From the sequence record PV806339.1: 60,026 bases of DNA. The stretch is one strand, 5' to 3'. The position numbers and the translations under genes are program-made. Shown piece by piece: positions 36,306 to 54,888 of this stretch; the stretch's first letter is position 1, and each line of letters opens with the position of its first letter. Origin of the DNA: a phage. Below the pieces are notes generated by a model. That model had not been told where the DNA came from. It made no database searches and worked only from the letters and a program-made list of their open reading frames with translations.

Positions 36306-36335
36306 AATATAGGTTATACACGCGACGTATGTCAA
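36306..36335 (-). promoter_or_regulatory. sigma70-type early promoter, leftward operon 4
   Basis: Minus strand reads TTGACA-TACGTCGCGTGTATAACC-TATATT (18-bp spacer). The spacer carries the conserved box. Confidence 0.7.
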
Positions 36336-38361: not shown

Positions 38362-38390
38362 ATATTAATTACACATGTCGCGTGTGTCAA
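38362..38390 (-). promoter_or_regulatory. sigma70-type early promoter, leftward operon 3
   Basis: Minus strand reads TTGACA-CACGCGACATGTGTAAT-TAATAT (17-bp spacer). The box is present in inverted orientation. Confidence 0.75.
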
Positions 38391-41553: not shown

Positions 41554-41582
41554 AATATTAGTCGTACACGCGACGTACGTCA
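41554..41582 (-). promoter_or_regulatory. sigma70-type early promoter, leftward operon 2
   Basis: Minus strand reads TTGACG-TACGTCGCGTGTACGAC-TAATAT (17-bp spacer) with the conserved box. Confidence 0.75.
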
Positions 41583-41603
41583 ATAACTTTATTCGGGGCA
41601 AAA

Positions 41604-44869: not shown

Positions 44870-44898
44870 ACAATAGTTCTACACGCGACGTATGTCAA
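44870..44898 (-). promoter_or_regulatory. sigma70-type early promoter, leftward operon 1
   Basis: Minus strand reads TTGACA-TACGTCGCGTGTAGAAC-TATTGT (17-bp spacer) with the conserved box. Confidence 0.7.
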
Positions 44899-44948
44899 TT
44901 CATTTCATCCAGTAATTATGATGACCGGGTGACACTCCAGTTTAGTTT

Positions 44949-45187
44949 CAGCCGGATGACTTTTTGAAGTAAGGCGGGTGGCCGGGCCGCCGGGCTTCAA
45001 CCGGGTAACTTTTTCAAGTAAGCGCGGAACGTCGCAACGACAACCGGACAGGTTTTTCAAGTAAGCCCGTCAGCCGGGTGAAATTGCCCCGACGCTGGTG
45101 GACAAAACCGTCAGCCGGGTAGGTTTTTGAAGTAAGAACTGGCCGCGTCGTTCAAAATTTTTCAACCGGGTAACTTTTTCAAGTAAG
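44949..45187 (+). repeat. five ~25-bp iterons CA(A/G)CCGG(G/A)(T/C)RNNTTTTT(C/G)AAGTAAG
   Basis: Copies at 44949-44973, 44998-45022, 45041-45065, 45112-45136 and 45163-45187. Copies 2 and 5 are identical. Partial copies lie at 44921-44940 and 45071-45085. Confidence 0.9.
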
Positions 45188-45493
45188 CCCGTCGGGAATT
45201 TTTATAGAGAAAGTCAGGCCCGGCGCGGCCTGCCGTTGTGGGCGGTTGTCGTTTTTGGCGGGATTTCGTACAAATCGTTATAAATCAACGGCTTAACCTA
45301 TGCGCCGATCGGCCTGTTTTGGCCCGGTTGGCGTCGGTTTTTCGTATAGAGTTCAAGTGTTTAGGACGTGGCGCGGTGTGCCGTTTGGCGGTGTGCCGGG
45401 GCGGGGGCCGTGGGGCGCGGCGGTGCAATGCGGCCCGGCGTGGCGATCGGTGGCGCTTTTATGTGCGGTTAATCAAATAATATGAAAAAAGAT

Positions 45494-45523
45494 TTGACGC
45501 ACGCCGCGTATATCATTTACATT
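45494..45523 (+). promoter_or_regulatory. sigma70-type promoter, rightward cassette 1
   Basis: TTGACG-CACGCCGCGTATATCATT-TACATT, followed by the leader hairpin CCC-TTCG-GGG. About 65 bp are shared with the promoter at 48128. Confidence 0.65.
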
Positions 45524-45587
45524 TAAATTCCCTTCGGGGGACGGGGCAAAAAGTCCCGGCGATAAACTAACTTTATGAGGTGTCACG

Positions 45588-45848
45588 ATGGAAAAGGTAT
45601 ACAACGCGATCAAGGGTCAGACGTTGCAACATTGGTTATCAATCGTTATTAAGCGCGACGAAAGCGGCACGGCAACGGTTGAACTGCATAGCACGATCCA
45701 CGTTAACCGGGTGAGCACGCTTTCTTTTTCATGGGGGAAGGAATTCACCGACGCCGATATTTTAAATGACAATGATTTATTACGCGTTATTTATCAGAAG
45801 TACGGCCGCGAAATTTTCACCGCCGAATATACCCGCGATTTCAAATAA
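45588..45848 (+). CDS. hypothetical protein
   Basis: 86 aa. GAGG SD. Confidence 0.7.
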   Translation: MEKVYNAIKGQTLQHWLSIVIKRDESGTATVELHSTIHVNRVSTLSFSWGKEFTDADILNDNDLLRVIYQKYGREIFTAEYTRDFK

Positions 45849-45861
45849 GAGGATCAACACA

Positions 45862-46401
45862 ATGCAAACTATCATTACCAAATATTCTAACGGTTCAATT
45901 ATGGCTAAATGCTGGAATGGTTGGACGCGTTCACAGTATGACGCTGAATTAAATAGCGAACAAAATCACCGCGCGGCCGCTGAAAAGTTGATCGCTAAAC
46001 TCAATGCGAATAAATCAGTTAGTTGGGGGATTGTTGCTAGTGCGCCATCCGTGCCGGGCGTGCGTGGTACGGATAATGGCTGGACGTTTATGATCGGTTA
46101 TATTCCAGAAGTCGCGCCGCTGGATATGTCGATCACTGTTAAATTCTGCCCGGCAACAAATAAAGGCCCGGCGTATATGCGCGTTTATTCGTGGTTAGTG
46201 CCGCGCGGGATCAAGGTTAACTATTCGCCACGCGTCGCCGACGGGTCAGACATTCAAGCCAATGCACGATACGCGGCCGGGATCATGTTAGAGCGAATTA
46301 ATGAAATATGCCGCGAGGGGGGCGATCTTTTAGGCTGGAAAATTGCGGACTATGTGCAATTGTACGACGGCGATCGCCTGTTCACACTGAAAGCTAATTA
46401 A
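45862..46401 (+). CDS. hypothetical protein
   Basis: 179 aa from the ATG 45862 with an AAGAGGA SD (the ORF opens at 45766). Confidence 0.75.
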   Translation: MQTIITKYSNGSIMAKCWNGWTRSQYDAELNSEQNHRAAAEKLIAKLNANKSVSWGIVASAPSVPGVRGTDNGWTFMIGYIPEVAPLDMSITVKFCPATNKGPAYMRVYSWLVPRGIKVNYSPRVADGSDIQANARYAAGIMLERINEICREGGDLLGWKIADYVQLYDGDRLFTLKAN

Positions 46402-46415
46402 TCCGGGGGCGCGTC

Positions 46416-46616
46416 ATGTTAATGGCTATTATCTTGATCGGTTATTCAATTATTGCGGCTGTTATATATCGTGACGCGCGGGCGGTGTGGCGTCGCTGTA
46501 AGGTTGAGCGCCGTTATTCTTTCGGGCGTAAAACTTTTTATTTACGCGAGCGTAAAACAGGCCGTTTGATCGGCTGTTCAAATAATTTTTTCACTCTTCT
46601 GTTACAAGGGGCTTAA
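46416..46616 (+). CDS. small membrane protein
   Basis: 66 aa. N-terminal TMD, then an Arg/Lys-rich tail. GGGGG SD. Confidence 0.55.
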   Translation: MLMAIILIGYSIIAAVIYRDARAVWRRCKVERRYSFGRKTFYLRERKTGRLIGCSNNFFTLLLQGA

Positions 46617-46618
46617 TC

Positions 46619-47101
46619 ATGAATCTTAATTCTATCAATAAAGATCAACGTTTATACGTCATGAAAGCGGGCGCGGGCTTTACCTGCTACGGGTTCGACG
46701 TGCTGAACAATAAAGCGCGCCGGGCGTTGGAATGGTTAAAGCGTCACGGCCGCGCGGCTGAAATGCTGTTAGGGGCAAAGGGGATCGACGTCATCGCGCT
46801 GGATATTCCCGCCCGCGTTGGTACTAAAAAACATTTTGCCGCGTGCAATAAGGTATTCGACGCCGCGCGGATCTATTCCATCGCGAGCGGCAATAAATGC
46901 GATGCGGAATATACACCGCAATTAATCGGCCTTGAGGGTCGCCGCGTGGAAGTGGTGGACGCATACGGGGAAACGCGCCGCTTTACCGTGGGGCGGTCAT
47001 CCGGCTGGATGCCTTGCCACCTTGAGATCGCCCGCCGCGATTCCAACGGCGGCCCGGCGGTGACGGGCGCGCCTTTTAAATCCGTATCCGTAATTAACTA
47101 A
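46619..47101 (+). CDS. hypothetical protein
   Basis: 160 aa, tightly packed against its neighbours. Confidence 0.75.
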   Translation: MNLNSINKDQRLYVMKAGAGFTCYGFDVLNNKARRALEWLKRHGRAAEMLLGAKGIDVIALDIPARVGTKKHFAACNKVFDAARIYSIASGNKCDAEYTPQLIGLEGRRVEVVDAYGETRRFTVGRSSGWMPCHLEIARRDSNGGPAVTGAPFKSVSVIN

Positions 47102-47112
47102 CCGGGGGATCT

Positions 47113-47316
47113 ATGGGTCATATGTATGGCGTTATCTTGTCAAATGGTACGCATTGCGACACGTCAACCACGGAAAAGGGCGCGAAAAATTACGCCACGC
47201 GCCACGGTTACAAGGAAGTAAGCCGCCGCCTGAATTGCGGCTATGACGTCGAAATCGTAGCACATCGCGCCGGGTCGAAATGGATCGACGGGCCTGCTAA
47301 CCACTCAACCAAATAA
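47113..47316 (+). CDS. hypothetical protein
   Basis: 67 aa. GGGGGA SD. Confidence 0.6.
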   Translation: MGHMYGVILSNGTHCDTSTTEKGAKNYATRHGYKEVSRRLNCGYDVEIVAHRAGSKWIDGPANHSTK

Positions 47317-47326
47317 GGGGATCACC

Positions 47327-47875
47327 ATGAAACTAAATATCACCGCGCCGGGCCTGTTCTTTAATCGTAGCGGCGACCGCGTCACCGTGGATCAAATCGT
47401 TTTAGAGAATAGCGCCGGGGCCGTCGTGTCATTCCCTGTTAAGGGCCGGATCTGGAAAATGTACCGGGGCGCTTATCGTCCGCGTGAGTTCAAGATCTGG
47501 ACGGCGGCGGGCAAGTTTTACGCGGGCGAACAATCCCGATCGCCGTGGGATATTGTCGGCGAGGTTGTCGCGGACGATGTGCGCCCGGTGTACTGGCAAG
47601 ATCTGACCGATGTCCAGAAAGCGCAAGCCGCCGCCAAATATCACAACGGGGAAGGCACGCCGGAAGATTATTTCACCTATACGCCGGATCAATTCATCCT
47701 GATTAATGGTGACGTTTACGATCTGGACGCCGACGCGGCCGTTTATGAGGTGGAAGGGTTAAAAGGTCATGTGCGCATACTGGAAAGCTCAAAGGCGGAC
47801 GGGGCCGCGTTGGCGGTGCAATGTGTGGACGGCTGGCAAGTAATAAGCGTTTACCGCGTACAGGTGGCATCATGA
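47327..47875 (+). CDS. hypothetical protein
   Basis: 182 aa. AGGGGA SD. Confidence 0.75.
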   Translation: MKLNITAPGLFFNRSGDRVTVDQIVLENSAGAVVSFPVKGRIWKMYRGAYRPREFKIWTAAGKFYAGEQSRSPWDIVGEVVADDVRPVYWQDLTDVQKAQAAAKYHNGEGTPEDYFTYTPDQFILINGDVYDLDADAAVYEVEGLKGHVRILESSKADGAALAVQCVDGWQVISVYRVQVAS

Positions 47876-48093
47876 ATAAAACCGGATTTTCGGGGAACGC
47901 CGCAAGGGCCGCGATCAAGTTTACCGCGTGCGGCGCGATCGTGGCGTTTATCGGGGCGGCGGTTATTTTCGGCGACAACGTCGGGCCATATAAAGTGTTT
48001 TTGTATACCGTCGCCGGGGGCGTATGTGTGCGCCTGATTTGGCCGACTCAAGACGAGGGCGACGCGCTTTTAAAACGGGATGACGGCCCGTAA
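47872..48093 (+). CDS. small two-TMD membrane protein
   Basis: 73 aa started at the ATGA overlap. Hydrophobic segments ACGAIVAFIGAAVIF and FLYTVAGGVCVRLIW. Confidence 0.6.
   Translation: MNKTGFSGNAARAAIKFTACGAIVAFIGAAVIFGDNVGPYKVFLYTVAGGVCVRLIWPTQDEGDALLKRDDGP
47878..47904 (+). repeat. 27-nt repeat, copy A (coding, 5' end of the membrane-protein gene)
   Basis: aaaaccggattttcggggaacgccgca matches 50543-50569 at 26 of 27 positions. Confidence 0.9.
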
Positions 48094-48127
48094 TGGTGAC
48101 GCGGCCGACGATTAAAGAGAAAAGTTA

Positions 48128-48157
48128 TTGACGCACGCCGCGTATATCATCTATTAT
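48128..48157 (+). promoter_or_regulatory. sigma70-type promoter, rightward cassette 2
   Basis: TTGACG-CACGCCGCGTATATCATC-TATTAT (18-bp spacer), followed by the same CCC-TTCG-GGG leader. Confidence 0.7.
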
Positions 48158-48218
48158 TAAATTCCCTTCGGGGGCCGGGGGCAATGGGGCCGACGGTTAT
48201 CAAAACAGGTACATAAAA

Positions 48219-49388
48219 ATGACTCACGATCAAATCGTTGCAATGGTTAACAAATACAGCATTAAAGCCGATCGCGCCGTTTCTTATAACTTTGATAAAT
48301 ATGGTTCGACGCAAGTCGAGATCCGCGAGATTGACGGCGGCTGTTTAGTGTGGCGCGCGTGGTCTTATGAAAGCAATTTTGAAAACGTGTTAGAAAGCGC
48401 GCTCGATCATTCCGGTGTACTGAAAACCGCCGACGAAATCGCAGAACAGGAAGCCGCCGCACGCGCTCAAAAGCTCCGCAATGACGCGATTTTCTTTGAG
48501 GTTCACGGCTTCGAAGATGATTTCATTCTTAACCTGTCCGACTTTACCCGCGCTGAAATCGAAGCGGAGATCATCGCGATGAATGCAGAATTAAACGCGG
48601 CAAGCGCCGACGCCGACGCGGCAACGTTTGACGCCGCCGATCATGTTTTACGCTCAACCAATCCGGCCGGGGAATATGTGTATTTAAAGCGCGGTTTCTG
48701 GATGTTAGATCTTGAGGACGCGGAGATCCTGAACGCGCGCCCGGATATACACTGGACAAGCCTTTACGATACCCCGATCGAATATGTGACCGTTGAGCAG
48801 GCCCGCAAGGATGACCCGGAAAGCGATTTCATCAAGCAAATGAAAGCGGGCTATGTGACCGCCCCGGCCGACTATGTCGATCGCGCGTGCGCCGCCGTTG
48901 AGCGTGGCAACGTTAACGCATCGGGGATCGTGCTGCATACCTTGCGCGACAAAATCGACGGCGAATTTTACGAAATCTCGACCCGTATTAGCCCGGCCGA
49001 ATATCAGGTTTATCGTGTGCGCGTTGTCGTGTCGTGCTGCATTGATGGCGCGTTTCATAACGTCATTGAACTGGATCGCGACGTCAACACGGTTGAACAC
49101 GTCCGCGACGTGGTGCGCGTCGGCTGCATGAAACAATACATCAAGCAAGCCCGCGCGACGTTTGCCGCGACCGGGGCCGCAACGCTGAACAATGACAAGA
49201 CGGCGACCCGTATCAAGATTAAAACCGTTGCGGGCATGACGTTGATCGCTAAAACCGAAGACGTGATTTTTTCAGAAAGCGGCCTGTTTTGCTCCGCGTG
49301 GTTAATGCGCCTTGATTTACTGGAAAACAAGACATACGCGCAAGCCGTCCTAACGTCGCAAATCAAATCAATCGAATTTATCAAATAA
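48219..49388 (+). CDS. hypothetical protein
   Basis: 389 aa, first gene of cassette 2. Confidence 0.8.
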   Translation: MTHDQIVAMVNKYSIKADRAVSYNFDKYGSTQVEIREIDGGCLVWRAWSYESNFENVLESALDHSGVLKTADEIAEQEAAARAQKLRNDAIFFEVHGFEDDFILNLSDFTRAEIEAEIIAMNAELNAASADADAATFDAADHVLRSTNPAGEYVYLKRGFWMLDLEDAEILNARPDIHWTSLYDTPIEYVTVEQARKDDPESDFIKQMKAGYVTAPADYVDRACAAVERGNVNASGIVLHTLRDKIDGEFYEISTRISPAEYQVYRVRVVVSCCIDGAFHNVIELDRDVNTVEHVRDVVRVGCMKQYIKQARATFAATGAATLNNDKTATRIKIKTVAGMTLIAKTEDVIFSESGLFCSAWLMRLDLLENKTYAQAVLTSQIKSIEFIK

Positions 49389-49398
49389 GGGGATCGCG

Positions 49399-49623
49399 AT
49401 GTTTTACACCGTGCTTTTAAACGCCGACTTCGAAGGGGCGACAAACGTCAAAATCTTTTACGTGGAAGGGGAAACGGTAGAAGACGCCGTGACCGCCGCG
49501 ATCGATGACATCAACGCGACCGAAGCGGAGATCGGCGGGGATGACTTCGAACCGTTAGCGCGTGACCAGTTCACGATCATTGCAGTTTTTCCGGGCTATC
49601 AGCCTAACGTGTGGGAGGGTTAA
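49399..49623 (+). CDS. small, highly acidic protein
   Basis: 74 aa. Many Asp/Glu and very few basic residues. AGGGGA SD. Confidence 0.65.
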   Translation: MFYTVLLNADFEGATNVKIFYVEGETVEDAVTAAIDDINATEAEIGGDDFEPLARDQFTIIAVFPGYQPNVWEG

Positions 49624-49626
49624 CCG

Positions 49627-49896
49627 ATGGAAATTAACGGCGTACAGGTCAAAAGCGTTGAGCGGTTCAGCAATTACGCGGAATGGTTAGCGCGTCAAAT
49701 GGTGGCGGGCGTGCCGTTGGCGTCGCACGCTTGCCCGCATTGCGGATCGGCGTTGCACGTCATCGCAAACGGTGACAAGGGCGATCAATGGGATTCTACT
49801 TGCGCTTGTCCGGTGTGCGCGGGCTTCTTTCATCGCTCAATCATTCACGGCGAAAAGCCGGAAATAACGATCGTTAAACTGGATCGAGGTTGGTAA
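49627..49896 (+). CDS. zinc-ribbon protein
   Basis: 89 aa with CPHCGS...CACPVC, i.e. four Cys in a ribbon-like arrangement. Confidence 0.7.
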   Translation: MEINGVQVKSVERFSNYAEWLARQMVAGVPLASHACPHCGSALHVIANGDKGDQWDSTCACPVCAGFFHRSIIHGEKPEITIVKLDRGW

Positions 49897-49898
49897 TT

Positions 49899-50036
49899 AT
49901 GGCGGGCTTATGGTTTTTAGTGGTGACGATGTGCGGCGCGGTTGGCGCTGATAATATGGCGGCCGATTGTCACGATTATGTTATTGACGCGGGGATCTCT
50001 TATGACGATTGCCGCGCGGCCGTGGCGAGGCGGTAG
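49899..50036 (+). CDS. possible 45-aa protein with a hydrophobic N-terminus (not in the supplied ORF track)
   Basis: ATG at 49899 preceded by GAGG, TAG stop at 50034-50036. It fills the gap between flanking genes. Translation: MAGLWFLVVTMCGAVGADN... Confidence 0.4.
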   Translation: MAGLWFLVVTMCGAVGADNMAADCHDYVIDAGISYDDCRAAVARR

Positions 50037-50048
50037 AAGGGGGCAACG

Positions 50049-50300
50049 ATGAATAAAGGCCAATACCGCGCCGCGCGTCGCCTGATACGTGATAACGGGA
50101 TCTATGCGTTGCGATGGCTGGACGATGACACCGCGCCGATTATGGACGTGTTAGCAAGCCAGCCGGATGACCAGTTAGAGACAAGGGCGGCGATCGTGGC
50201 GTACAGCGCCCGCGCCGGGCTTGCGTGCAATGTGCGTAAAACGGCGTCACTTGACCTTTTAGCGCGGTACCATGACCGCAAGGCGGCCGCGAATGGATAA
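50049..50300 (+). CDS. hypothetical protein
   Basis: 83 aa. AAGGGGG SD. Confidence 0.7.
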   Translation: MNKGQYRAARRLIRDNGIYALRWLDDDTAPIMDVLASQPDDQLETRAAIVAYSARAGLACNVRKTASLDLLARYHDRKAAANG

Positions 50301-50544
50301 GGCGCAACGCTTAACGGCCGCACGTATGGCGGCGGATCGGTATGCCGGGATCGCAAGGGCAAAAGGTTTTAAGCGTCATATTGATGGCGTGACGTTTACC
50401 CGGGCCGATGCGGATCTAACGTGGGATGACCGGGCGCGCGCTTTCCGTGTGACGCTGTACAAAATGGACGGGGCCGCGCGTCTTGCCGTTGCCACTGTAC
50501 GCGCTAACGCGATGCTTAACGTGCTGTTAAAAGCGTTTATCTAA
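50293..50544 (+). CDS. hypothetical protein
   Basis: 83 aa from the ATG 50293, with an 8-nt overlap with the upstream gene (the ORF opens at 50272). Confidence 0.65.
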   Translation: MDKAQRLTAARMAADRYAGIARAKGFKRHIDGVTFTRADADLTWDDRARAFRVTLYKMDGAARLAVATVRANAMLNVLLKAFI

Positions 50545-50569
50545 AACCGAATTTTCGGGGAACGCCGCA
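50543..50569 (+). repeat. 27-nt repeat, copy B (non-coding remnant)
   Basis: aaaaccgaattttcggggaacgccgca lies immediately after the last gene of cassette 2. There is no start codon, and a 1-nt indel lies just upstream of the repeat relative to copy A. Confidence 0.9.
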
Positions 50570-50610
50570 CGATCCCTTTTAACCTGTTTTGACATATTCC
50601 CCATGTATCA

Positions 50611-50640
50611 AAGGCCGCCTATCCGGGCGGCTTTTTTATT
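50611..50640 (+). terminator. rho-independent terminator ending rightward cassette 2
   Basis: GCCGCC-tatccg-GGCGGC followed by TTTTTTATT. Confidence 0.9.
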
Positions 50641-50647
50641 GCCTTTC

Positions 50648-50846
50648 TGATATACGCGGCGTGCGTTGGTGTGCCGTGTATCGGGCCTATGGTGCGCCGC
50701 TGTAGTTGATATACGCGGCGTGCGTATGGCGGCCCGTCCTGCTTTCTTCCTTCCTGATATACACGACGTGCATCAATGCGGCCTTATGTGCGCGCTATGC
50801 CGTATGGCGGCCCGCTATGGTGCTGCATGATATACGCGGCGTGCGT
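50648..50846 (+). repeat. four promoterless copies of the early-promoter spacer box
   Basis: TGATATACGCGGCGTGCGT at 50648-50666, 50707-50725 and 50828-50846, plus the variant TGATATACACGACGTGCAT at 50755-50773. No usable -10/-35 pair accompanies them. Confidence 0.9.
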
Positions 50847-51083
50847 TGGTGTGCGGCTGTATATGGCTATCTATTCCCCTTTCTATGGTATCCCCTGCTA
50901 TATGGTGTGACGGGGCGTTATTGTATGCCCTTATTTCGGCCGCTATGGGGGCTAGGCGGGGCGATCGTGGTGTAAGGTATGCCTACCTATTACGATCTAT
51001 CTTGCGAGGCGTGGCGGGCGGCTGAGAAAGAATTACGGTCACGATTTCAAAAAGGTACTTACCCGCCAGTCGGTCGGCCCGGG

Positions 51084-51095
51084 GGTGCGCAGAGC
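51084..51095 (+). other. candidate cohesive-end (cosN) dodecamer GGTGCGCAGAGC
   Basis: A GC-rich dodecamer containing the TGCGCA palindrome, in the largest non-coding region. It matches my unverified recollection of the 12-nt 5' cohesive end of chi-like phages. Confidence 0.3.
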
Positions 51096-51307: not shown

Positions 51308-51587
51308 GGTTACAAGTTACAGACGGGTTACAAGTTTTTCGCTTTGTAACCTCTAACTATCTCACTGTTTTTACTGCGTTTTTCTCCTATAAAGTTACAA
51401 GTTACAAATAAAGTATAGTAATAGTCCAGAAATAGAGAAAACGAGGTAAAAATGTGAATTTTATATAGGGGGGAATTTTACCCGGGCGCTAAACCACTTC
51501 GGTTTGTAACCTGAATACCCGGATCGCTGAGAGCCGCGCCACCACTGGCCCGAACATGGTTACAAACGGCGAAAATGGTATGTAACC
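51308..51587 (+). repeat. array of GGTTACA(A/T) half-sites in direct and inverted arrangement
   Basis: ggttacaagttacag 51308-51322; GGTTACAAG-n7-CTTTGTAACC 51326-51351; gttacaagttacaaa 51394-51408; ggtttgtaacc 51501-51511; GGTTACAAAC-n9-GGTATGTAACC 51558-51587. Confidence 0.85.
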
Positions 51588-51620
51588 TTTTGCCCGTTTT
51601 GGCCGTTTTCTTGCGTTTCA

Positions 51621-51636
51621 ATAACAAATTTGTTAT
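51621..51636 (+). promoter_or_regulatory. perfect 16-bp palindrome ATAACAAATTTGTTAT (operator candidate)
   Basis: Lies just upstream of the putative promoter of the XRE gene. A further half-site TTTGTTAT lies at 51667-51674, just after the -10 element. Confidence 0.6.
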
Positions 51637-51696: not shown

Positions 51697-51984
51697 ATGC
51701 AGCACGATGAATGCCGTGAAACGTTGATGGATTTCAAACGACAATTACAGACACATTTGAAGGCGATTTTACGTCGTCAGGGGGTCACACAGAGCGCGCT
51801 TGCGACGATGATCGGCGTACACCAGTCAAGATTAAGTTTCATGCTTAACAGTGACGCAGACAGAGTTTCGATCGATAAACTCATTGAAGCGATAGTGAAA
51901 CTGGACGGCGTGTTTATGGTGAAAATCGGAGATCAAACAGACATAAATCGAGTGCGGTACAAGGAGTGCGAAGACAACGTTTGA
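51697..51984 (+). CDS. XRE-family HTH DNA-binding protein
   Basis: 95 aa. HTH segment VTQSALATMIGVHQSRLSFMLN. Confidence 0.75.
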   Translation: MQHDECRETLMDFKRQLQTHLKAILRRQGVTQSALATMIGVHQSRLSFMLNSDADRVSIDKLIEAIVKLDGVFMVKIGDQTDINRVRYKECEDNV

Positions 51985-52024: not shown

Positions 52025-54610
52025 CTAAACTTCGTCTTCATCGTCAAACGGGTCTGGCTTTTTGCCGACCAGTTTTTCGACTTCTGCGTCATGCCGTTTT
52101 AACGTAGTCTGCACCCACGACGAGTTAAGTTTCCCCGCGTCGTCGAATGCCCCTTTGACCCGCTTCCTGACATAAACGCGGCCAGATTCGCCGCCAAATT
52201 TGACCACGCCGCCCGGCTTGAAGCCCAATTCCATAAGCATGTTTTTCAGGCGGTTCGTCTTCGGCATTTCCACGTCTGTCATTTCGAGGAATGCGTTTTT
52301 CAGGGACGGCACGAAGATGACGTCGCGGTGTACGCCCGGCGTCGTTCCGTCACGAAGCATTTGTGCGATTGCGCCTTCCACGCCATCGTCAGACGCGTCG
52401 GCCATGACCGCGAATGCTTCGGTGTCCTGCGGTGCGTGTCCTTTGGCATCGAAATCCTTTCCGATCTCCCAATCGAGGAACCACTTTTTGATAGCAGGTG
52501 CGTGGTTTTCGATTGCCCGGTACACGTTTTTGAAGAAGCGCGCGCGTTCAGTCTTCGACCCGTAAACCCGCTCCATGTCCAGATGATTTTCTGCCTGCGT
52601 GGACACCACCAGATAACGACGCTGGTTTTCATCGAGTGGCAATGCGTTGAAGTGGTTGGTGAACATCATTTTGCTGCTGGTGTTCACGACTTCCTTCGGC
52701 TTGCGGCCCTTTGGCTCAATCTGGAAGCGATCGTTTGTGATGAATTCCTTCTGGCGTTCCACCGCGCTGTACCGATCGCCTTTGTCGTAGATCTCTTCCA
52801 CGATTTTCAGGATGTGGCCCTCGGCCCAATCGCTGAAACGGCCATTCATCACGGTGTTTGACACATAGCCCACGTTCGACGCGCCGAGCATCCGCGACAT
52901 GATGATGCCGAGCGTCGTTTTACCAGAACCATGCGCACCACGGATCAGAAGCGAGTAGTTGATGCGTTTCGTTGGGTGCTGAATAACCCACGCCATCCAG
53001 TCCAGAACATAGCGGCGTTCCTTCTCGTTCGGGAAAAGCACGATGAAGAAGTCTTTGATGATCTCCAGCGCCTTTTTGTCGTACGGAGAAAGGTCAGTCG
53101 CGGCCTCCGGAATGGATTCAGGGTCAAAAGAGTTCAGCCACGTACGCCCACGGTCGTCAATAAAGAATTCCGGCCCGATCACCCCCTCTTTCGGCTTCCA
53201 CACAGATTCCGGCATGTCACCGTGCATCGCCGGGTAGTACATCGCGTCCCAAACGATAGGAACCGGGCGGACTACCGACGCATAGTGGACAGGCTTGAAG
53301 GCTTCTTCCTCAAACACGCATTTTTTCGCAAAAGCGACGTCGAAAGCGCCTTTTGTGATGTAATCGCCCGTGGTTTTTTCGATAAAACTGTCATTTGCCT
53401 TCGAGAAAACGAAGTTTTTCAGCCACTGCGGAGTCTCTTTTGACCCGTAATCGAAGCCCAAAAGCTCCCTTTTGTCACCAGCAGTGAGGCGGAAGTTGTT
53501 GATCCTGCGGTATGCTTCGGCCGCAATCTGGACGATGGCCTTGCGGGTAAGCCCGAAAATCTGCGCTTTTTTGAATGATTCGGCCCACGCATTCCAGTCA
53601 TTCGCCTCGGTACACTCGGCGAAAGCCTCGCGGTACTCGATGGCGCGTTCTTCCTGCTCGGCTTTCTCGATGTCCTGCACTTCTTTGATGATGGTGCCGA
53701 GCGTGATCAGTCGAGTCGAGTTGTGCGCGAAGCCCTTATCCCACTTGTATTCGAAATCACCTTCGTCGAAGTTGTGTGCCTGCATGGCCCATTCGCGGGC
53801 AATGGCCTTCGCCTCGTCCTGATCGCGGCAGGAAATTTGCAGCGCGGCCAGTACGGTGATGTAGTTCTCGTAATCTTCCGGGTTCGGGTATTTCAGGACG
53901 ATGTCGCGCAGTTCATCGTACGTGCCGTCCCACTTTTTGACGTCAGACAGCGCGGCCCAATCGTCATCGTCTGCCGAACCGATAGACTCATAACCGTTCA
54001 TTGGCCGTTTGACCATTGTCCAGCCCAAGTCCTTCGCGTATCGGTCGAATTCGGCGGCGATCTCGCGAGCGGTATCGAGGCTGATCTCTTCGAGGTCAAG
54101 GTCGGCGGCGTTGTTCAGCGGATTCTCGCCATCAATCCAGTAATAGTCGCGCTTGGTGTCCGGGTGGATACCGTACGCAACGAACTGCTGGCCGTCGGCG
54201 AGGATTTCAACTGCATGGCGCTGGCCGAAGTCGTCTTCCCACACGCCGGATTTCACTTTGGCGAACGGGTTTTCGGTTCGGTACAGGTAGAGTTTCTTCG
54301 GCTCCCGGCCGATACGACATGGCGCTGCACCGACGTTCTCGGCGATCCAGTCTGCCATGTGCGCCACGGCGTCTTCATCGTAAACGTCGATGTCAACCGC
54401 CGGGGTGTATTTGGTCAGAATCCCGATGCCGTTATTCGTATAGCGTTTCGCCCAACGCTGGATCTGCTCCTTATCATTGATTGTTCGTTCCCAATCTTCA
54501 CCGATAGGGCGTTTGCCCGCACCCTTCTTATCGGCGTCCGGGGCGTAGATAGGTACGATGGTGTACCCATTCCCCCAAAGCGTTTCGCCGTACTCTTGCC
54601 AGTAGTTCAT
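52025..54610 (-). CDS. bifunctional primase-polymerase / P-loop helicase (prim-pol plus P4/D5-type NTPase)
   Basis: 861 aa. N-terminal prim-pol-like region (GYTIVPIY...GKRPIGEDW), Walker A GAHGSGKTTLG, Walker B-like ILKIVEE. Ends FDDEDEV. Confidence 0.85.
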   Translation of the reverse strand: MNYWQEYGETLWGNGYTIVPIYAPDADKKGAGKRPIGEDWERTINDKEQIQRWAKRYTNNGIGILTKYTPAVDIDVYDEDAVAHMADWIAENVGAAPCRIGREPKKLYLYRTENPFAKVKSGVWEDDFGQRHAVEILADGQQFVAYGIHPDTKRDYYWIDGENPLNNAADLDLEEISLDTAREIAAEFDRYAKDLGWTMVKRPMNGYESIGSADDDDWAALSDVKKWDGTYDELRDIVLKYPNPEDYENYITVLAALQISCRDQDEAKAIAREWAMQAHNFDEGDFEYKWDKGFAHNSTRLITLGTIIKEVQDIEKAEQEERAIEYREAFAECTEANDWNAWAESFKKAQIFGLTRKAIVQIAAEAYRRINNFRLTAGDKRELLGFDYGSKETPQWLKNFVFSKANDSFIEKTTGDYITKGAFDVAFAKKCVFEEEAFKPVHYASVVRPVPIVWDAMYYPAMHGDMPESVWKPKEGVIGPEFFIDDRGRTWLNSFDPESIPEAATDLSPYDKKALEIIKDFFIVLFPNEKERRYVLDWMAWVIQHPTKRINYSLLIRGAHGSGKTTLGIIMSRMLGASNVGYVSNTVMNGRFSDWAEGHILKIVEEIYDKGDRYSAVERQKEFITNDRFQIEPKGRKPKEVVNTSSKMMFTNHFNALPLDENQRRYLVVSTQAENHLDMERVYGSKTERARFFKNVYRAIENHAPAIKKWFLDWEIGKDFDAKGHAPQDTEAFAVMADASDDGVEGAIAQMLRDGTTPGVHRDVIFVPSLKNAFLEMTDVEMPKTNRLKNMLMELGFKPGGVVKFGGESGRVYVRKRVKGAFDDAGKLNSSWVQTTLKRHDAEVEKLVGKKPDPFDDEDEV

Positions 54611-54888
54611 TCAAGGATTTCCCCTGTTTCGCTGTCCGTTTTGATCCATGAAGGGTTAGTCAGCCAATGCGGACGGATGCCGCAGTGAGGGACAGCTTTG
54701 CAAACTTTTTCGGCCACGCTGCTCGTTACGTTGTTCTGCACGGCCCATAACAATGTCGGGTAACTGATCTTCGCTGCCTTCGCCAGTTCGGCCATTCTGG
54801 CGTTCGGGTCTACCTCCAAAGCCGCTTGCATCATGAGAAATTTGACCCGCATCCGGTCGTCGTTTAAAGCCCAATCTGGAAATCGCAT
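54607..54888 (-). CDS. Cro/YdaS-like HTH protein
   Basis: 93 aa. HTH-like MAELAKAAKISYPTLLWAVQN. GAGGG SD. ATGA-coupled to the primase gene. Confidence 0.65.
   Translation of the reverse strand: MRFPDWALNDDRMRVKFLMMQAALEVDPNARMAELAKAAKISYPTLLWAVQNNVTSSVAEKVCKAVPHCGIRPHWLTNPSWIKTDSETGEILE

Follow-up and report, generated by a model that had tools for sequence, protein, structure and literature searches.

The phage genome of record PV806339.1 (60,026 nucleotides; 'the window' hereafter, that is, the whole stretch analysed) carries two consecutive runs of rightward genes, 45588-48093 and 48219-50544, which are headed by near-identical blocks and which share a 27-nt repeat. The question raised by this locus is whether these repeats are recombination boundaries at which whole accessory cassettes are duplicated or swapped, as proposed in an initial annotation, or elements of another kind. 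The region is 92-96% identical, with its full length covered, to Chi-like Salmonella phages (Chivirus, Casjensviridae), and corresponds to gp64-gp75 of the Chi annotation, genes that occupy the right end of the Chi genome in its linear form. The published 12-nt cohesive end, GGTGCGCAGAGC (PMC4342425), has a single match in the window (51084-51095, plus strand). This single internal cos site, together with the match to the Chi right end, indicates that the window is a circularly permuted whole genome, in which the two-cassette region occupies the last 5.6 kb ahead of cos. The explanation we favour, with a probability of roughly 65%, is that the region comprises two early operons, one behind the other and both rightward, whose promoter-operator-leader modules are duplicated, plus one relic gene start, and that single genes turn over within it.

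The left blocks are a genuine repeat: 45494-45570 and 48128-48204 align in direct orientation and without gaps over 77 nt at 79% identity, around a core that is nearly identical in both copies (TTGACGCACGCCGCGTATATCAT, then AAATTCCCTTCGGGGG; blocks 45491-45555 and 48125-48190). Each copy has the make-up of a plus-strand promoter module. At P1 (45494-45587; from promoter scan, repeat search, box search and fold, and kept in 25 loci), the sigma-70 hexamers TTGACG (−35, 45494-45499) and TACATT (−10, 45518-45523) are separated by 18 nt (9/12 in the promoter scan); at P2 (48128-48218; from promoter scan, repeat search, box search and folds), TTGACG (48128-48133) and TATTAT (48152-48157) stand at the same spacing (10/12). 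In both, an imperfect 21-bp dyad, TGACGCACGC-C-GCGTATATCA, fills the spacer and overlaps the −35 hexamer (45495-45515, TGACGCACGCCGCGTATATCA, at P1 and 48129-48149 at P2), that is, a dyad site lies over promoter core elements, as in operators of the Cro/CI type. The predicted transcript start falls a few nucleotides ahead of a CCC-UUCG-GGG hairpin, which folding places at 45530-45539 (CCC-TTCG-GGG in the DNA) and 48164-48173, and the 5′-untranslated regions (5′-UTRs) end at the ATG codons at 45588 and 48219. No intrinsic terminator was found by folding between operon 1 and P2.

This design is not confined to the two cassettes, a point missing from the initial annotation: it also heads four leftward operons (44898, 41583, 38390 and 36335), and its box recurs in four to five copies beside cos. 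The pattern TTGACRYACGYCGCGTRT has five exact matches against 0.01 expected (P1 and P2, plus 44898, 41583 and 36335 on the minus strand), and the sixth family copy, at 38390, is a variant of it. The minus-strand promoter at 44870-44898 (TTGACATACGTCGCGTGTAGAAC-TATTGT; promoter scan and pattern search) is divergent from P1 and reads TTGACA-17-TATTGT (10/12 in the scan). On the same strand lie 41555-41583 (TTGACGTACGTCGCGTGTACGAC-TAATAT; pattern search), 38362-38390 (variant box, TTGACACACGCGACATGTGTAAT-TAATAT; read directly) and 36307-36335 (TTGACATACGTCGCGTGTATAACC-TATATT; pattern search), and the folds of the last two include a 5′ hairpin leader, so that P1, P2, 36335 and 38390 all have a predicted hairpin immediately behind the expected start. 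Each family copy occupies an intergenic gap and heads a run of genes, and the promoter copies that fall within the 25 Chivirus loci searched (two to three per locus) are all conserved. As the left repeat represents two of six promoter-box-leader modules spread over both strands, it is no cassette-specific boundary element. Moreover, since one module heads P1, P2 and four leftward operons, it appears to define the early promoter class of the phage.

The box also occurs without a promoter. As a 19-mer, ACGCACGCCGCGTATATCA, it has six matches at no more than three mismatches, five of them exact, against 0.06 expected. A cluster of four boxes on the minus strand, thus inverted relative to P1 and P2, lies at 50648-50666, 50707-50725, 50755-50773 and 50828-50846; three of these are identical to the P1/P2 box over 19 nt, while the one at 50755 has diverged at three positions. 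A further, degenerate box (TGACATATTCCCCATGTATCA; 50590-50610, plus strand) is in direct orientation, and the T that precedes it gives TTGACA, with no −10 following. The cluster is 256-436 nt from cos (256-494 nt with the degenerate copy), between the terminator of operon 2 and cos. Because the cos-side boxes lack a usable −10, the box itself is the conserved unit. In all 10 Chivirus relatives scanned, the two promoter boxes and the four cos-side boxes are present in unchanged order. In one further relative (L029; Logan SRR8426478), a 122-nt deletion equivalent to 50755-50878 runs from the third cos-side box to just past the fourth, which indicates that box copy number can change, presumably by box-box recombination.

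The same plan extends beyond Chivirus. Enc34, JC01, PatoteraRojo, SLP-22 and the Klebsiella phage OU509537 each have iterons, P1, an operon ending in a homologue of Chi gp70, P2, a second operon and cos-side boxes; in Seifer the plan matches as far as P2, with the TGCAC-type promoter box of OU509537. Equivalent cos-side clusters are thus found in five other Casjensviridae genera, each with a box sequence of its own. The box is lineage-specific, yet in Enc34, JC01, PatoteraRojo, SLP-22 and OU509537 it is common to the promoter and cos-side copies. That of SLP-22 is TGACACA-TGCCGCG-TGTGTCA; that of OU509537 reads TGCAC-N9-GTGCA at promoter and cos-side copies alike; and in JC01 (ACACTTCGGATGTGTCA-type) even the central CTTCGGA-type spacer is common to both. 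The box therefore behaves as a promoter-independent unit that co-varies across lineages, as a Cro/CI-type operator should, and this co-variation is the strongest argument for one sequence-specific factor that reads all copies. P1 and P2 leaders are 74-90% identical within a genome (Enc34, SLP-22, OU509537 and Seifer), while between-genus orthologues are about 45-60% identical. As the two copies are closer within a genome than between genera, and the two-operon layout is ancestral, gene conversion or selection appears to keep the modules matched.

Between the divergent promoters 44898 and 45494 the window holds five copies of a 31-nt repeat, TTCAACCGGGTAACTTTTTCAAGTAAG (44947-45191). Its TTTTTCAAGTAAG core is found at the matching place in Enc34, JC01, PatoteraRojo and OU509537, and a CAAGTAAG-type variant in Seifer. 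These repeats resemble origin iterons, and a replication origin is probably situated between the two promoters.

Gene content does vary around these elements, as the initial annotation had anticipated, albeit gene by gene and not cassette by cassette. Across 20 relatives mapped onto the window, all mosaic breakpoints fall at gene junctions: 45546-45586, 45568/45858, 46388, 46621, 47095-47114 and 47312-47317 in the first run, and 49390-49401, 49627, 49865-49871, 50027, 50137 and 50272 in the second. In addition, two relatives have internal deletions in the 389-aa gene (gp71). The homologues of gp65, gp69, gp70 and gp71, which every mapped relative has, and the last two genes are fixed in the gene maps, while genes 1, 3, 4 (160, 207 or 146 aa) and 5 and the small genes after gp71 are variable slots. 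The commonest breakpoint, 45546-45586, which lies just 3′ of the P1 leader hairpin, was found in 9 of the 20. In phage FSL SP-030, for example, the P1 leader turns Jacunavirus-like (SLP-22-like) right after the hairpin and is then followed by different genes. Together, the P1-leader breakpoints and this switch suggest that conserved regulatory DNA provides the homology that anchors exchange among phages.

In the 20 relatives, neither the 27-mers nor P2 coincide with a breakpoint, and no swap, duplication or loss of a whole cassette was found in them or among the matches listed from 117-173 records; apparent matches from query position 185 in fragment records were due to BLAST joining the P1/P2 repeat. 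The region thus lacks the hallmarks of mobile cassettes with dedicated recombination sites, integron-like or otherwise, as in none of these relatives does a unit move whole between boundary sites and no recombinase is associated with it. Nor does it resemble a moron: the variable slots lie within operons and carry neither promoter nor terminator, and a lower GC content is confined to the first three genes.

The second repeat is of another nature. The 27-mer described in the initial annotation is real (47878-47904 and 50543-50569; 26 of 27 positions matching, 0 expected by chance), but the 1-nt indel ascribed to its second copy does not exist, the alignment being ungapped; what is missing, an ATGAA, lies just upstream, where copy 1 has atcATGAATAAAACCGG and copy 2 has atcTAAAACCG. 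Nor does copy 1 (47877-47904, plus strand) close the first cassette. It is located just after the ATGA stop/start overlap of genes six and seven and comprises codons 3-11 of the last gene (47872-48093), ending 190 nt ahead of the stop codon of that gene. Copy 2 (50542-50569, plus strand) begins at the stop codon that closes operon 2, in the 3′-UTR, 40 nt upstream of the terminator, and is correctly described as lacking a start codon. The 27-mer is present at both positions in 24 of 24 Chivirus loci, with a near-invariant core of about 22 nt, whereas no equivalent was found in the other genera examined, though gp70 and the two-operon layout are kept there.

At copy 2, relatives exhibit two junction types, atcTAAAACCGG (this window) and atcTGAATCCCGG (Chi). 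Both can be derived from atcATGAATAAAACCGG by different small deletions that remove the start codon, which fits a decayed gene start, as the initial annotation had supposed, left at an old recombination or duplication joint. No second intact gp70 paralogue was found after operon 2: in 142 records, tblastn gave a single copy of gp70 for each genome. The conservation of copy 2 does not exceed that of the adjoining 3′-UTR and terminator, and strict co-variation of the two copies is broken by L029, which combines an SP-030-type copy 2 with a standard copy 1. On these comparisons, the 27-mer is most likely a Chivirus-specific relic of a gp70-type gene start.

The repeats and their conservation, the promoter consensus and the membership of its family, the breakpoints and the terminator are observed, and from them the working of the region may be pictured as follows. 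Each operon would be headed by a strong host sigma-70 promoter with a dyad box, giving a transcript that begins with the CCC-UUCG-GGG hairpin. We infer that this transcription is early, that the box is the binding site of a dimeric protein, probably encoded by the phage, which represses the family promoters jointly, and that the 5′ hairpins stabilize the early mRNAs. The same protein would presumably also occupy the cos-side cluster, which may act as a sink, as a looping partner or as a link to the genome end. Behind operon 2, an old recombination or duplication joint would have left the first ~27 nt or so of a gp70-type gene, and the start codon of this second copy would later have been lost in two different ways. 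Gene content would turn over by replacement, insertion and deletion of single genes at junctions, with the hypervariable first slot abutting the P1 leader. Since the repeats would then be regulatory elements plus one relic, recombination at them appears to be a side effect of their conservation.

Several observations weigh against this scheme. Dyad symmetry is imperfect, holding at 14 of 21 positions at P1 and P2 and at 8-14 of 21 at the leftward promoters, and the P1 and P2 leaders fold no better than shuffled sequences (z = −0.2 and −0.7). The genome encodes two XRE-type regulators, neither of which tracks box type: the helix-turn-helix (HTH) gene at 51697-51984 (the first after cos; XRE/HTH_37) is mosaic and absent from the other genera, while the regulator at 54607-54888 has an 84%-identical counterpart in Seifer and a 51%-identical one in OU509537, two phages with the TGCAC box. 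By this correlation, neither fits as the box-binding protein. In FSL SP-030, an identical G-to-C change is found in both 27-mer copies, which could mean function or conversion and not a passive relic. Finally, literature searches turned up no transcript data for Chi-like phages, so that promoter activity, start sites and early timing are predictions.

How, then, do other explanations compare? That the left block and the 27-mer bound cassettes which are duplicated or swapped whole is unlikely in our estimate, and yet part of the idea survives, as this is accessory, mosaic DNA. Its junctions lie most often at the edge of the P1 leader (9 of 20 relatives), the leader of FSL SP-030 becomes SLP-22-like past the hairpin and leads into other genes, P1 and P2 evolve in concert within each genus, and L029 lost 122 nt inside the box cluster. 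JC01 has a repeat pair of its own, in which a terminator and a 24-mer recur where operon 1 and operon 2 end, and the 27-mer itself would be the footprint of a past joint. However, whole-cassette events are lacking in the 20 mapped relatives and the listed matches, the variation proceeds gene by gene with no breakpoint at the 27-mers or P2, no recombinase was found with the region, a promoter family of six, distributed over both strands, includes the left block, and genera with matching layout lack the 27-mer pair. A further alternative takes the 27-mer as a functional nucleic-acid element, such as a small hairpin or a site for a protein or RNase, placed after a stop codon near operon 3′ ends. 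Its presence at both positions in 24 of 24 Chivirus loci and its nearly invariant core, directly 3′ of a stop codon in each copy, would fit, as would two base changes: the G-to-A of copy 2 in the window turns a G-U pair into A-U in CCGAAUUUUCGG, and the double G-to-C of FSL SP-030 gives a 5-bp stem, CCGGA-UUU-UCCGG. We nevertheless consider such a function quite improbable, given that the hairpin is weak and no better than shuffled (z = +0.7), that the element is absent from all other genera examined and has no Rfam match, that copy 2 is not conserved above its surroundings, and that the two copies are uncoupled in L029.

The cos-side boxes admit readings of their own. They may form a cosB-like array bound by the small terminase (1797-2366, DUF1441), with the promoter copies allowing the packaging protein to shut off early transcription late in infection, or being incidental. 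Arrays of small-terminase sites beside cosN are the rule in lambda-like cos phages, four to five sites lie here within 500 nt of the cohesive end at a position kept in six genera, and the DUF1441 protein adjoins a 693-aa open reading frame, the putative large terminase. However, identical boxes are found inside six promoters up to 15 kb away, and to our knowledge no cosB sites inside distant promoters have been described; moreover, the boxes are on the side of cos that faces away from the terminase genes, and a second repeat family, CTATGG (4 of its 10 copies cos-side), is an equally plausible terminase site. A terminase array thus seems a doubtful explanation. Less probable still is that the box is no protein-binding site but an alternating purine-pyrimidine, GC-rich spacer that would make the promoters sensitive to supercoiling, for instance through non-B structure, so that early transcription would follow the topological state of the genome after injection or circularization. 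The box halves do largely alternate (ACGCACGC|CGCGTATAT, ACATACGT|CGCGTGTA and ACACATGC|CGCGTGTGT), but the promoter-less copies beside cos are conserved base for base and the box co-varies between promoter and cos side from genus to genus, even where its centre does not alternate (CTCCGGG in JC01, for instance); sequence-specific recognition therefore fits better than a structural property. A bolder extension of such recognition, which we regard as speculative and hardly likely, is that one protein reads the dyad box in every early promoter and in the cos-side cluster, coupling early control to the genome end, an arrangement that would be conserved across Casjensviridae while the box sequences co-evolve. 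Such coupling could take the form of a small terminase or another protein acting on the incoming DNA end that doubles as the repressor, or the cluster could be a titration sink or looping partner that times the switch from early to late expression.

The two-operon reading that we prefer can be compared with known systems. One close likeness is to OL and OR of lambda and 434 with their Cro and CI dimers: early promoters on both strands share a dyad site over the RNA polymerase contacts, the sites are multiple and separated by kilobases (about 2.5 kb from P1 to P2 and again from P2 to the cos-side cluster, comparable to the 2.4-kb OL-OR loop), and the promoters diverge from a control region that holds iteron-type repeats. 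The differences are that each promoter here has one site and not a tripartite operator, that the promoter-less cluster beside cos has no counterpart in lambda, and that the present phage is virulent, with neither XRE-type regulator correlating with box type. Families of near-identical early promoters are also known from lytic phages, such as T7 A1-A3, the T5 early promoters and SPP1 PE1-PE5. As in those phages, strong host-polymerase promoters of one design here head consecutive early operons of small genes of unknown function; unlike in them, a spacer dyad and a 5′ hairpin leader are conserved beyond the hexamers, and the dyad also occurs apart from promoters. For SPP1, five early units are described (PMC6316719).

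The cos-side cluster resembles R1-R3 of lambda cosB in that short repeated sites adjoin a cohesive end within a few hundred base pairs, at a position conserved in relatives, but here the box also sits inside promoters far away, and the array, on the right-end side of cos, is separated from the terminase genes by more than 10 kb of genome. For the leaders, a 5′ stem-loop stabilizer of the ompA-leader type may be a parallel, with hairpins predicted near the expected start, although the energies at P1 and P2 are no better than shuffled. Mosaic exchange of modules at conserved junctions, and morons, are well described in tailed phages from the work of Hendrix, Juhala, Clark and colleagues. The present region is alike in that single genes are replaced, inserted or lost at boundaries, the conserved P1 leader being one such junction, in the lower GC of the most variable slots, and in the 27-mer as a fragment of a neighbouring gene at an old joint. 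It departs in that the variable genes, without promoter and terminator of their own, are not classical morons, and in that the units exchanged are single genes inside operons and not the operon-sized cassettes of the initial annotation.

As for the genes themselves, operon 1 (45588-48093) has seven open reading frames, all on the plus strand, that correspond to Chi gp64-gp70. The first (45588-45848) belongs to DUF7300 (Pfam/PHROGs) and is followed by 45862-46401, 46416-46616, 46619-47101, 47113-47316 and 47327-47875, and the seventh, the gp70 homologue (47872-48093), encodes a small protein with two hydrophobic stretches; in five other genera, too, operon 1 closes with a gp70 homologue. Operon 2 (48219-50544), defined by open reading frames and the Chi annotation, has six plus-strand genes. 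Its first (48219-49388) encodes a 389-aa protein that is found only in Chi-like phages and gave a poor structure model; next come 49399-49623, a zinc-ribbon-like gene (49627-49896; 89 aa, four cysteines), 49899-50036, 50049-50300 and 50272/50293-50544. Homologues of the zinc-ribbon-like protein in relatives are recorded as Phage_Mu_gp6 (PF26833); the present Pfam search returned weak zinc-ribbon matches alone. Operon 2 ends in a plus-strand intrinsic terminator at 50610-50641, where an 11-pair stem-loop, AAGGCCGCCUAUCCGGGCGGCUU, runs into a U run (folds, z = −2.6), and this terminator is invariant in 19 distinct relatives.

The genes of the two cassettes are unrelated to each other, as had been noted, with no pair below E = 0.5 in an all-against-all BLASTP, and they have no recognizable function: Pfam, PHROGs and PDB sequence searches returned families of unknown function alone. 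No recombinase domain was found among the cassette proteins in Pfam and PHROGs, and no family match backs the labels 'serine recombinase' and 'integrase' in record OP535471. No known RNA families (Rfam) or tRNAs were found. The 160-aa protein in the fourth slot (46619-47101) has more than 200 homologues, including some in 140-150-kb phages (phiTE and KaOmega), and its model is confident (pLDDT 95), with no informative match in PDB or BFVD. The AT-richness that the initial annotation had judged by eye is measurable (GC of 0.523 in cassette 1 and 0.543 in cassette 2 versus 0.566 in the genome; mean GC at third codon positions 0.587 versus 0.668, P value=0.002, Mann-Whitney test), yet it is modest and carried mainly by the first three genes (0.43-0.49).

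Around cos, other repeats were seen. Four of the 10 genome copies of CTATGG(T) lie within 50687-50943, interleaved with the boxes, and could be sites for terminase or a host factor. Just right of cos, upstream of the HTH gene 51697-51984, GTTACAA/TTGTAAC repeats are concentrated at 51309-51636 (5 of 7 and 2 of 3 genome copies), with a perfect palindrome, ATAACAAATTTGTTAT, at 51621-51636; these probably constitute a separate operator set. The HTH gene is a swappable allele, found in about 34 records at no less than 95% identity, with a 35%-identical version in FSL SP-030 and others. That the box might be a host chromosomal operator was considered and rejected: in a survey of one genome per species, multiple copies of the exact 19-mer were found only in a contig that looks Chi-like and in a short fragment, and of four single matches elsewhere, two, both in large contigs from unrelated bacteria, have the appearance of chance matches.

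Some records deserve caution. NC_052991 (phage KpYy_1_41, a 54.4-kb record; loci L012 and L013) lacks the equivalent of window 46621 to ~51800, cos included, and is probably an incomplete or mis-joined assembly rather than a real deletion. Through homologues of 48219-49388, dozens of Chi-like contigs of nearly full length (~59 kb) came to light in assemblies whose labels name Salmonella enterica isolates, which suggests a carrier state or phage contamination of cultures. Chi-like fragments are also filed under Listeria, Enterococcus and Staphylococcus phage names (for example, a regulator/primase stretch in GU169904, Staphylococcus phage SA1), most likely through contamination or mislabelling. 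In OU509537 (L011, 8145-8197), an Illumina adapter, AGATCGGAAGAGCGTCGTGTAGGGAAAGAGTGT, directly follows the cos overhang at the record end; it is residual library sequence that marks the physical end of the DNA.

Chi is a classic flagellum-dependent phage whose gene regulation is essentially undescribed, and literature searches found no account of these promoters, boxes or repeats. The layout of promoters and boxes belongs to a family-wide regulatory architecture, conventional though previously undescribed, and this ordinary regulatory explanation largely replaces the idea of cassette swapping. The map offered here comprises six promoters of a common early-type design, a candidate operator and its conserved cluster at cos, and a probable origin; phage specialists may find nothing surprising in it except that cluster. 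By separating core from variable genes in the right arm, the map also narrows the search for functions in host takeover or anti-defence.

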